Shown here piece by piece: positions 49,878 to 52,130 of a stretch of DNA of 64,000 bases. The stretch's first letter is position 1, and each line of letters opens with the position of its first letter. A model generated the notes under the pieces. That model was not told the origin of the DNA. It did not search any database and saw only the letters and a list, made by a program, of their open reading frames with translations. Both the position numbers and the translations under genes were made by a program. This DNA is from a phage: sequence record PZ445437.1; one strand, given 5' to 3'.

Positions 49878-50783
49878 TTAAAGGTCATTCAAAAGGTCAT
49901 CTAGGTCCGTGTCATCAGCACTAGATGAACTGCCAGAGCTTGAGCTCATAAAATCATCTTCAGTTTTTGTATTGAAGTCATCAACATTGAATGCATCCAA
50001 ATCATCAGCAACTTTATCAGCTTTCTTAGCAGCAGTTGCAGCGGCACCGCCCATCACAGCAGTTCCCATGACTTGACCGAATTTAGTGCTCAGTTCTTCA
50101 AACGATTTGAATTTATCTTTAGAAGTCATTTCAGAAAGGTCAACCATTTGTTCGAACAGTTCTTTCTGGAAAGATTCATCGTCAATGTTTGGAATCGCAG
50201 ATTGATTTAGGAATTTAGATTCATCGTAGTTACTAAATCCAGAAACCTGTTTAACTTTCAGTACAAAGTTAGCACCTTCCCACGGACAAGTTACATCAAC
50301 TGGAGTTTCACCCATTTCAACATCAACCGCAATCATCGCGTTGATTTTATCCCAGATTTTCTTACCGAAACGATATTTAAATACTTTACCTTCATTTTCT
50401 GGAGCAGCTGGGTCTTTTACAACAAGAATATTAGCCCAGTAAGAAGTTTTACGTTTAACAAGACTGTACTCTTTATTGTCAGTGTTGTACAGATCATTTT
50501 TACTGATGTACTGACATACTGGGCAAGAATCGTAATCACCGTGGGTAGATGAACATGTTTCAATATACCATTTACCATTTTTCTTGAAACCGTGATTTAC
50601 AAGAATTGCGAATGGTGCTTGTTCATCATTTTTAGACGGAAGAAAACGAATTACTGCTTGACCGTTACCCGCATTATCGAGTTTCAGTTTCCACTCGCCT
50701 TTATCTTCAGAAGAAAAACCTTTATTGCCATTCAGTTTAGCCATTTGTGCAGCAAGTTCAGCAGTAGATTTACGTTTAAACAT
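49878..50783 (-). CDS. 32: single-stranded DNA-binding protein gp32
   Basis: 301-aa ORF recognised as T4 gp32 ([51 protein letters not shown]...). Confidence 0.97.
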
Positions 50784-50856
50784 TTTATTTCCTTTTTAAT
50801 TTAATTTAATTTAATTAACAGTTGGTGCTATGACACTTTACCTCATAGCTGGCATA
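50784..50856 (-). promoter_or_regulatory. gene 32 autoregulatory translational operator (pseudoknot + UUAAA repeats)
   Basis: leader reads GCUAUGAGGUAAAGUGUCAUAGCACCAACUGUUAAUUAAAUUAAAUUAAAUUAAAAAGGAAAUAAA-AUG, matching the T4 gene 32 operator as recalled. Confidence 0.75.
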
Positions 50857-51475
50857 ATTCGCAATACTCTGGGTCTTCGAGAGGTATCCAACCTGAGTTG
50901 AAATACTTTACCATCGATTTAGCAGTTGTATCAGTTATATTTATATTACCTTTAACTCTTCGCCATCCAGGAGTTTTACCGTACAGATTAGAGGATAATA
51001 ATAACACATAATTCTCGTAAGCAATATGAGATAATTTCCAAGACTCTATATTAGCTCGTGATGTTTTCCAAGGTCTAAAATCGTCACGGTTCATATAATT
51101 AGCCAATCTCATATGCTCTCTAACTTCCGGGTCTTTGGCTGGATGAGTTTCACCACTCACACCAAATCCACCACCAGCATATACCAGATTAAAATAGTCT
51201 GGATTATCTCTGGCATTTACTTCAAGTTGGTATTTTCGTTCTGCTTCAATAACATCCAAGTCATCATCAATTTGAATTATTTTAACGCTCGGTTTTTGAA
51301 GCATTAGCGCATTCAAAAATCTTTTTTGTTTACATGAGCTCCAGTATTCCTTTCCGGAAGAGTCATATATTATTCCGTTCTCAAATGAGCAATTTAATTT
51401 ACTACCGATATAGTAGTATGGCGGAGTCTTATTTTTGACACGGTCTTCAAATGTAAACCAATATACTATATTCAT
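50843..51475 (-). CDS. segG: free-standing GIY-YIG homing endonuclease (SegG-like)
   Basis: 210-aa ORF, N-terminal IVYWFTF...PYYYIGSK (GIY...YIG); between genes 59 and 32; 3' end overlaps gene 32 operator. Confidence 0.75.
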   Translation of the reverse strand: MNIVYWFTFEDRVKNKTPPYYYIGSKLNCSFENGIIYDSSGKEYWSSCKQKRFLNALMLQKPSVKIIQIDDDLDVIEAERKYQLEVNARDNPDYFNLVYAGGGFGVSGETHPAKDPEVREHMRLANYMNRDDFRPWKTSRANIESWKLSHIAYENYVLLLSSNLYGKTPGWRRVKGNINITDTTAKSMVKYFNSGWIPLEDPEYCELCQL

Positions 51476-51476
51476 A

Positions 51477-52130
51477 TCAATACTTGCAAGATTTCACAGT
51501 TTCAATGAAAACATTTTTAGCTTTCTGTGAATCAATATTTAAAATTTTTCTATAAGCCTTTAACTTTATAGAATAATTATTCCAGACTAAATTATCAGTC
51601 TGTTCATCATGTTTATCAATTATATTTAAAAATGAATCAAGCAAGATAAACGTCTCAAACGAAATTATGTTCGACTGAAGCAGTTTAAAAATATAACTTG
51701 ATTGAACTTTTGGATTATATTCAAAGATTTCTTTAAAAGCAGAAACTTCAACTTTTTTACTAAAATAATAAATGTTGCGAATATCTTCTTCAAACTTAAA
51801 TTTAATTTGCTTTAAGCGTCCGATATATTCACGATAAAACACAAGTGCATCAGCGTCAGAGATGTCACCAATCCAAGCATCTTGGTTAGCAACCAAATTG
51901 CTTATAAAGATTAAAGCAAGTTCCTTTAATTTATATTTTTCTGATAACTTCTGGAAAAAATACTTATCCCTTCGCTTTTGATAAGCAGCATCAGACACCC
52001 GCATGCACCAATTATACTTAATAACATCATACTTTCCATTCATATGCTGTTTTATCATTAAGTATAATTTATAAACTGATTTACCATCAATGTATCTTTC
52101 ACCACCAGCAGGCATGCGGAGTTTAATCAT
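51477..52130 (-). CDS. 59: helicase loader gp59
   Basis: 217-aa ORF recognised as T4 gp59 (MIKLRMPAGGERYIDGKSVYKLYLMIKQHMNGKYDVIKYNW...). Confidence 0.95.
   Translation of the reverse strand: MIKLRMPAGGERYIDGKSVYKLYLMIKQHMNGKYDVIKYNWCMRVSDAAYQKRRDKYFFQKLSEKYKLKELALIFISNLVANQDAWIGDISDADALVFYREYIGRLKQIKFKFEEDIRNIYYFSKKVEVSAFKEIFEYNPKVQSSYIFKLLQSNIISFETFILLDSFLNIIDKHDEQTDNLVWNNYSIKLKAYRKILNIDSQKAKNVFIETVKSCKY

Follow-up and report, generated by a model that had tools for sequence, protein, structure and literature searches.

We found that the homing endonuclease gene segG, in a window of 64,000 nucleotides of phage DNA (sequence record PZ445437.1; 'the window' below means this whole stretch), ends inside the autoregulatory pseudoknot of the gene 32 leader. 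In all probability, this overlap is a by-product of a compact insertion of the endonuclease gene, and not an obligatory coupling of the two genes, in a classical T4 59–segG–32 block that is transferred whole at homing. The source of the window is a T4-type phage (genus Tequatrovirus) with the classical T4 order gene 59–segG–gene 32, in which segG sits between the two other genes and all of the relevant genes are on the minus strand (Table 1). The product of the ORF is identical to T4 SegG (NP_049855) at 210 of 210 residues, and the ORF at the same position is annotated as SegG in NC_000866 and AF158101. Across the 1.1-kb region (used as a 1101-nt query), identity is 99.5% with Yersinia phage PYPS2T and its relatives, and 99.0% with T4. 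In the segG–32 region of the T4 record AF158101, no operator, promoter or RNase E features are annotated.

Table 1. Positions of the genes and regulatory elements discussed, numbered from the first nucleotide of the window.
Feature	Position	Strand	Basis
Gene 59, helicase loader	51477..52130	minus	Pfam T4_Gp59_N and T4_Gp59_C; sequence
segG, free-standing homing endonuclease gene, 210 aa	50843..51475	minus	End coordinate includes the stop UGA 50845-50843
MotA-type middle promoter (TTGCTTA ... TATTAT), inside segG	~50998..51024	minus	Mapped from the promoter feature of the near-identical phage ASO78A; MotA box located
TATAAATA, late-promoter consensus for gene 32, inside the segG coding sequence	50938..50945	minus	Exact match
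GCGAAUUAUGCC, counterpart of the T4 RNase E '-71' processing site	50851..50862	minus	Sequence identical to T4; cleavage by analogy with T4 (PMC3014915)
12-nt overlap, UGC CAG CUA UGA: last three sense codons of segG and its stop, which form the 5' half of the pseudoknot	50843..50854	minus	Read directly from the sequence
Gene 32 autoregulatory H-type pseudoknot	50827..50854	minus	Covariation of both stems; identical to the T4 operator sequence
Pseudoknot stem 1, 5' strand UGCC	50854-50851	minus	
Pseudoknot loop 1, A	50850	minus	
Pseudoknot stem 2, 5' strand GCUAUGA	50849-50843	minus	
Pseudoknot stem 1, 3' strand GGUA	50842-50839	minus	
Pseudoknot loop 2, AAGUG	50838-50834	minus	
Pseudoknot stem 2, 3' strand UCAUAGC	50833-50827	minus	
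Four tandem UUAAA units, unstructured part of the gene 32 operator; preceded by UUAA at 50818-50815	50795..50814	minus	TRF; alignment with T4 and segG-less phages
Gene 32 SD AAGGAAA (50794-50788) and AUG (50783-50781)	50781..50794	minus	Sequence
Gene 32, single-stranded DNA-binding protein, 301 aa	49878..50783	minus	Pfam PF08804 (gp32), E 7e-67

The original prediction described the endonuclease gene as a GIY-YIG ORF, with which its fold and motifs agree, while the domain profiles detect no such domain: no Pfam family at E ≤ 0.01 (PF01541 is unmatched) and no NCBIfam family at E ≤ 10. A search with phmmer of the ORF product against PDB sequences returned nothing relevant, and the Foldseek match of SegG to I-TevI was not significant (E 1.3). 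PHROG 7504, 'homing endonuclease', matches the ORF with an E-value of 1e-133. The N-terminal domain of SegG has the GIY-YIG alpha/beta fold, and the motifs are represented by IVY (residues 3–5) and YIGS (residues 22–25), with the two motif tyrosines 17 residues apart, which we take to be a longer spacing than in I-TevI. R12, Y22, I23, G24, S25, E79 and N96 are invariant in 26 of 26 SegG homologues, and Y5 is nearly so; E79 and N96 would be the counterparts of I-TevI E75 and N90. The placement of SegG in the GIY-YIG superfamily rests on fold and motifs, together with published work on the identical T4 protein, for which endonuclease activity and a target in gene 32 have been reported (a table in PMC2988022; PMC2330249).

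Some relatives of SegG (P0014, P0016, P0017, P0020–P0022, P0025, P0028 and P0029) share with it only the N-terminal nuclease half (43–56% identity over about half of the query) and diverge beyond it; some of the C-terminal regions contain Cys-rich motifs, and one type is 292 aa long. Because these proteins keep the nuclease half but carry different C-termini, swapping of DNA-binding domains within the SegG family is suggested.

At its 3' end, the endonuclease ORF runs into the gene 32 leader, as had been predicted: the stop codon is nucleotides 5–7 of GCUAUGAGGUAAAGUGUCAUAGCACC, and 12 nt are shared with the knot. The stop thus lies inside stem 2, and the 3' strand of stem 1 starts at the very next nucleotide. 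The knot occupies positions −71 to −44 relative to the gene 32 AUG. Downstream of it come ACCAACUGUUAA, four perfect UUAAA units (TRF: period 5, 4.4 copies, 100% matches), AAGGAAA and the AUG at 50783, so that the repeats and the gene 32 SD were also seen on the same strand as described. By its sequence, the leader is the T4 gene 32 operator, bar one extra UUAAA unit (T4 has three) and one A less between the SD and the AUG. T4 has the same SegG, gene order, knot sequence and 12-nt overlap of ORF and knot (its segG is also known as ORF 32.1), as well as the same embedded TATAAATA and MotA-type promoters and the same AAUUAU site. Studies of the T4 operator reportedly include those of McPheeters (1988), Shamoo (1993) and Liu (2003). 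For T4, whose knot has the same sequence, specific binding of gp32 and translational repression are established (works cited in PMC535899 and PMC3014915).

Two further features of the leader were noted. The number of UUAAA units varies among segG-carrying phages, being two, three (T4) or four (the window), as judged from the coverage classes of the matches to a junction query (below) plus alignments of the leaders. In addition, the motif ACUGU (50819–50823 in the window, within ACCAACUGUUAA) is enriched in gene 32 leaders (loci L008–L033, at −22 to −64): 23 distinct 90-nt leaders hold 40 copies of it, a density of 1.74 per 90 nt where the flanks have 0.10, although the relatedness of the loci inflates the count.

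We compared the locus with that of phages lacking segG. Among 510 matching phage records, 140 carry segG, and the same count was obtained with the 1101-nt query and with a 117-nt query from the 3' end; segG is therefore either complete or wholly absent in the phage collection. In the segG-less phages RB14, PP01, G2540-3 and 235Ecol030PP, a non-coding spacer of 99 nt lies between gene 59 and gene 32. It reads TTGCTTATTATAAATAGATTATAAT, which contains a MotA-type box, TATAAATA and TATAAT, and continues with AAUUAUCUCAC and a complete knot of the T2 type; gene 59 ends 57 nt upstream of this knot. A comparison with T-even phages lacking segG had been proposed as a check on whether the operator is bound to the endonuclease gene; it places the whole pseudoknot in non-coding DNA.

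The knot of the T2/T6 type has the same topology as that in the window, the same single-A loop 1, an identical 7-bp stem 2 (GCUAUGA/UCAUAGC) and, after it, the same ACCAACUGUUAAUUAAA leader. It differs in being fully non-coding, without segG; in stem 1, which is UGACC/GGUCA in T2 (5 bp, −6.3 kcal/mol) and UGCC/GGUA here (4 bp with a G-U pair, −3.1 kcal/mol); in loop 2 (UACAUCG in T2, AAGUG here); and in having two UUAAA units. An NMR structure of the T2 gene 32 knot is available (cited in PMC3014915). The left boundary of the segG block is the gene 59 stop, which is TAA in segG-less and TGA in segG-carrying phages. On the right, homology between the two kinds of locus returns at CCAGCTATGAGGT; the 3' strand of stem 1 and loop 2 then differ again, and the sequences are identical from UCAUAGC onwards.

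The type of knot is completely linked to the presence of segG. A junction query (the segG 3' end and the leader) matched 140 records, all at a coverage of at least 80%. A T2-type spacer query matched 357 records at a coverage of at least 80%, and its remaining partial matches were about 140 segG-carrying records with 80–95% identity. The T4-type knot was thus found in 140 of 140 segG-carrying records and the T2 type in 357 segG-less records, and no hybrid, i.e. segG with a T2-type knot or a T4-type knot without segG, was seen among these 140 and 357 records. Such linkage would fit whole-block transfer during homing. It contradicts the expectation that a gain of segG must preserve the operator of the recipient, since the T4-type knot travels with the endonuclease gene.

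We considered two simple origins for the T4-type sequence and rejected both. The segG 3' end (UGC CAG CUA UGA) could be a duplicate of the gene 59 3' end (UGC AAG UAU UGA), but gene 59 of segG-less phages ends 57 nt before a knot that is non-coding. The T4-type stem 1 and loop 2 could be a compensatory derivative of the T2 type, but its AAGUG and GGUA recur in L019 (82% gp32 identity), a more distant leader that reads AUACC A GCUACGA GGUAU AAGUG UCGUAGC and has the loop 2 of the T4 type. On this evidence, the T4-type knot is more likely a separate allele than a T2 derivative. L019 may be the RB69 leader. For RB69, an operator made of a pseudoknot and UUAAA/UAAA repeats has been probed for structure and footprinted with gp32 (PMC535899). 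The RB69-type operator differs from that of the window in the lack of segG and in a stem 2 whose sequence is changed by compensated substitutions.

Four other T4-like lineages also have SegG homologues (39–64% identity) between genes 59 and 32, with stop codons 23 (L088), 19 (L089), 5 (L091) and 17 nt (L093) upstream of their own pseudoknots. The C-terminus of T4 SegG falls at the same alignment column as that of several homologues, indicating that the ORF has not been extended within the family. Since T4 SegG ends level with its homologues, the alignment speaks for a replacement of the terminal segG codons by knot sequence, or for the loss of a short spacer. The equal lengths would not fit an extension of the reading frame into the knot, the idea proposed in PMC535899.

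A further variant of the locus is found in Escherichia phage a51 (OQ067376.1; L094), where a 2-nt TC insertion in a TCTC run (at about position 869–870 of the locus, corresponding to about 51027 in the window) truncates SegG at 178 aa, while identity to the window is 100% over the 3' 190 nt, in which the promoters, the AAUUAU site and the knot lie. This single record may represent a naturally occurring segG pseudogene, or the insertion may be an error of sequencing. The operator is thus separable from the endonuclease 3' end in the segG-less spacers, in the homologues that stop 5–23 nt short and in the a51 frameshift. The original prediction that coding sequence and operator are physically fused is right in so far as the end of the ORF and the 5' half of the knot are the same 12 nt; as an obligatory fusion it does not hold.

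In other T4-like lineages (L012–L018, L020, L021 and L026, at about 1400–1503; gp32 66–81% identical), the pseudoknot is absent. Gene 59, ending in AAC UGU AAA UAU UAA, there stops 10–20 nt before gene 32, and the whole leader lies inside the gene 59 coding sequence. Because the post-knot AACUGUUAA of T4 resembles the gene 59 terminus of these lineages, it may be a relic of such a terminus. The knot-less leaders have three to four copies of ACUGU, 10 and 13 nt apart, which places them in three different frames of the gene 59 3' end and, for this reason, hints at an element acting at the level of RNA.

Promoter signals for gene 32 are also contained in segG. The middle and late promoters of gene 32 were located inside segG, and the transcripts are processed by RNase E (PMC2988022); in T4, every gene 32 mRNA species is cut at −71, and degradation of the RNA upstream of the cut follows (PMC3014915). 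The nucleotide equivalent to T4 −71 is A50858, at −75 in the window, 13 nt before the segG stop and 4 nt before stem 1. If cleavage takes place here as in T4, the mature gene 32 mRNA would keep only the last five codons of segG and the upstream fragment would lose the segG stop, because the cut falls 13 nt before it. A sigma-70-like promoter on the plus strand over the knot (50830–50858; ATGACA-17-CATAAT with an upstream TG, 10/12), reading antisense into segG, was rejected as within chance expectation (4.3 per region); sigma-70-like matches in the region are no more numerous than in shuffled sequence.

Taken together, we propose the following course of events. segG would have replaced most of the 99-nt 59–32 spacer of its segG-less relatives, in which lie the middle and late promoters of gene 32, an AU-rich site of the RNase E type and the pseudoknot. 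Of each of these, the segG block would bring its own version: the promoters within its reading frame, AAUUAU 13 nt ahead of its stop and the 5' strand of stem 1 in its last codons. By analogy with T4, gp32 would nucleate on the knot and spread cooperatively over the UUAAA repeats and the SD, blocking gene 32 initiation, as was established for T4 (PMC535899, PMC3014915). SegG would cut gene 32 of a segG-less genome, and repair would copy segG and the adjacent T4-type knot as one block; indeed, SegG drives the exclusion of T2 gene 32, with co-conversion (PMC2330249). Since homing co-converts flanking DNA, the operator would never be split and the knot allele would be inherited with segG. Processing by RNase E, again as in T4, would strip the segG frame from mature gene 32 mRNA.

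It is possible, and we hold this only tentatively, that the overlap, the embedded promoters and the RNase E site were in addition selected as a means of retention by which a clean loss of segG is made costly, since no deletion of the gene would leave stem 1, the promoters and the processing site of an essential gene all intact. The same argument has been made for embedded promoters (PMC2988022). It would account for a segG that is complete or wholly absent by both queries, and decay was seen only in a51, where a 2-nt frameshift left the regulatory 3' part identical. However, segG-less genomes are in the majority (357 against 140), the SegG homologues of other lineages persist without the overlap, and recent homing with co-conversion explains the linkage equally well. 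Such retention is compatible with the by-product explanation.

The overlap might, doubtfully, serve a dual function, in which terminating ribosomes melt the knot on unprocessed transcripts and briefly de-repress gene 32, while the 12 nt, the promoters and the RNase E site together lock the locus against loss of segG; the last codons would, separately, have been replaced by knot sequence and not gained by frame extension. If true, the synthesis of the endonuclease would be tied to the supply of the single-stranded DNA-binding protein that is needed for repair of the breaks made by SegG.

The original prediction also held that gp32 autoregulation might influence termination and reinitiation at the endonuclease 3' end. 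On an unprocessed polycistron, ribosomes ending at the segG UGA in stem 2 could unfold the knot, and then reinitiate at gene 32 or transiently remove the nucleation site of gp32; conversely, bound gp32 could hinder termination on segG. A ribosome terminating within stem 2, with the 3' strand of stem 1 directly adjacent, would have to melt the whole knot, judging from the size of the ribosome footprint. Furthermore, the gene 59 stop is 1 nt from the segG AUG (UGAUAUG, 51475–51479) and an upstream SD is not obvious, for which reasons translation of segG itself probably depends on coupling to gene 59 within the polycistron. However, 59 nt separate the segG stop from the gene 32 AUG, which is preceded by a strong SD of its own. 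Transcripts from the middle and late promoters begin within segG, leaving most gene 32 mRNA without a translatable segG, and in T4 the gene 32 mRNAs are all cut at −71, 13 nt before the stop (PMC3014915). In addition, the overlap is absent from the homologues that stop 5–23 nt upstream and from the 357 segG-less genomes, and in a51 the frame is shifted. Because of the 59-nt gap, the SD of gene 32, the internal promoters and the processing by RNase E, we regard such coupling of segG termination to gene 32 reinitiation as speculation, and as quite unlikely.

We analysed whether the pseudoknot is conserved in gene 32 leaders. The gp32 loci from viral contigs and the loci with SegG homologues gave 12 distinct leaders with a knot of the same topology. 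Pairing holds in 95.1% of cells across these 12 leaders, both partners have changed in 8 of the 12 pairs, and covariation scores 0.707 as against 0.224 in shuffles; these values come from an ungapped alignment, with loop 2 padded with N and the register set by hand, that leans towards the structure. This alignment replaced an unguided MAFFT alignment, which misplaced the loop 2 gaps and broke the outer pairs of stem 1. When the 3' partner was slid by 1–3 columns as a control, paired cells fell to 27–47%. In stem 1, 88% of cells pair and four of the five pairs have changed on both sides; in stem 2, 100% pair and four of seven pairs have done so. Loop 1 is A in 12 of 12 leaders. Leaders L031 and L032 were excluded from the count; they have candidate stems AAUGA/UCAUU and GGUGUAG/CUACAUC (at about 1420–1480), with loops far longer than in the T4 and T2 types.

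Folding was less informative than the comparison. The nested-fold energies of the stems taken singly are −3.1 (stem 1) and −8.6 kcal/mol (stem 2), and the MFE fold of the leader recovers stem 2, nested folding being unable to show stem 1. The thermodynamic fold of the 90-nt leader was no better than that of shuffled sequence (z −0.17), and an Rfam scan of 50500–51700 gave chance-level matches only (E 2.5–9), with no gene 32 operator family. Comparative pairing supports both stems, and the gene 32 pseudoknot can be considered well supported by covariation. The last two null results are what one would expect if the end of the ORF were merely palindromic with no conserved RNA structure, a reading to which the pairing relative to the slid controls, the changes on both sides of the stems and the identity to the experimentally mapped T4 operator leave practically no room.

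Endonuclease ORFs holding the regulatory signals of an essential downstream gene are also known from T4 segA, segE, mobB and mobC (PMC2988022); segG differs from these in that an RNA operator element also overlaps the ORF, and not promoters alone. The overlap of segG and the pseudoknot is itself already known, having been explicitly noted in print by Borjac-Natour et al. in 2004 (PMC535899). Together with the embedded promoters and RNase E processing it is textbook T4 biology, and carries little weight as a discovery. Our additions are modest: the complete linkage of knot allele and segG in about 500 genomes, an overlap that is peculiar to the T4-type allele, and an ORF that is no longer than its homologues. 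The locus illustrates how the regulatory signals of an essential gene can be captured intact by a selfish endonuclease gene next to it.
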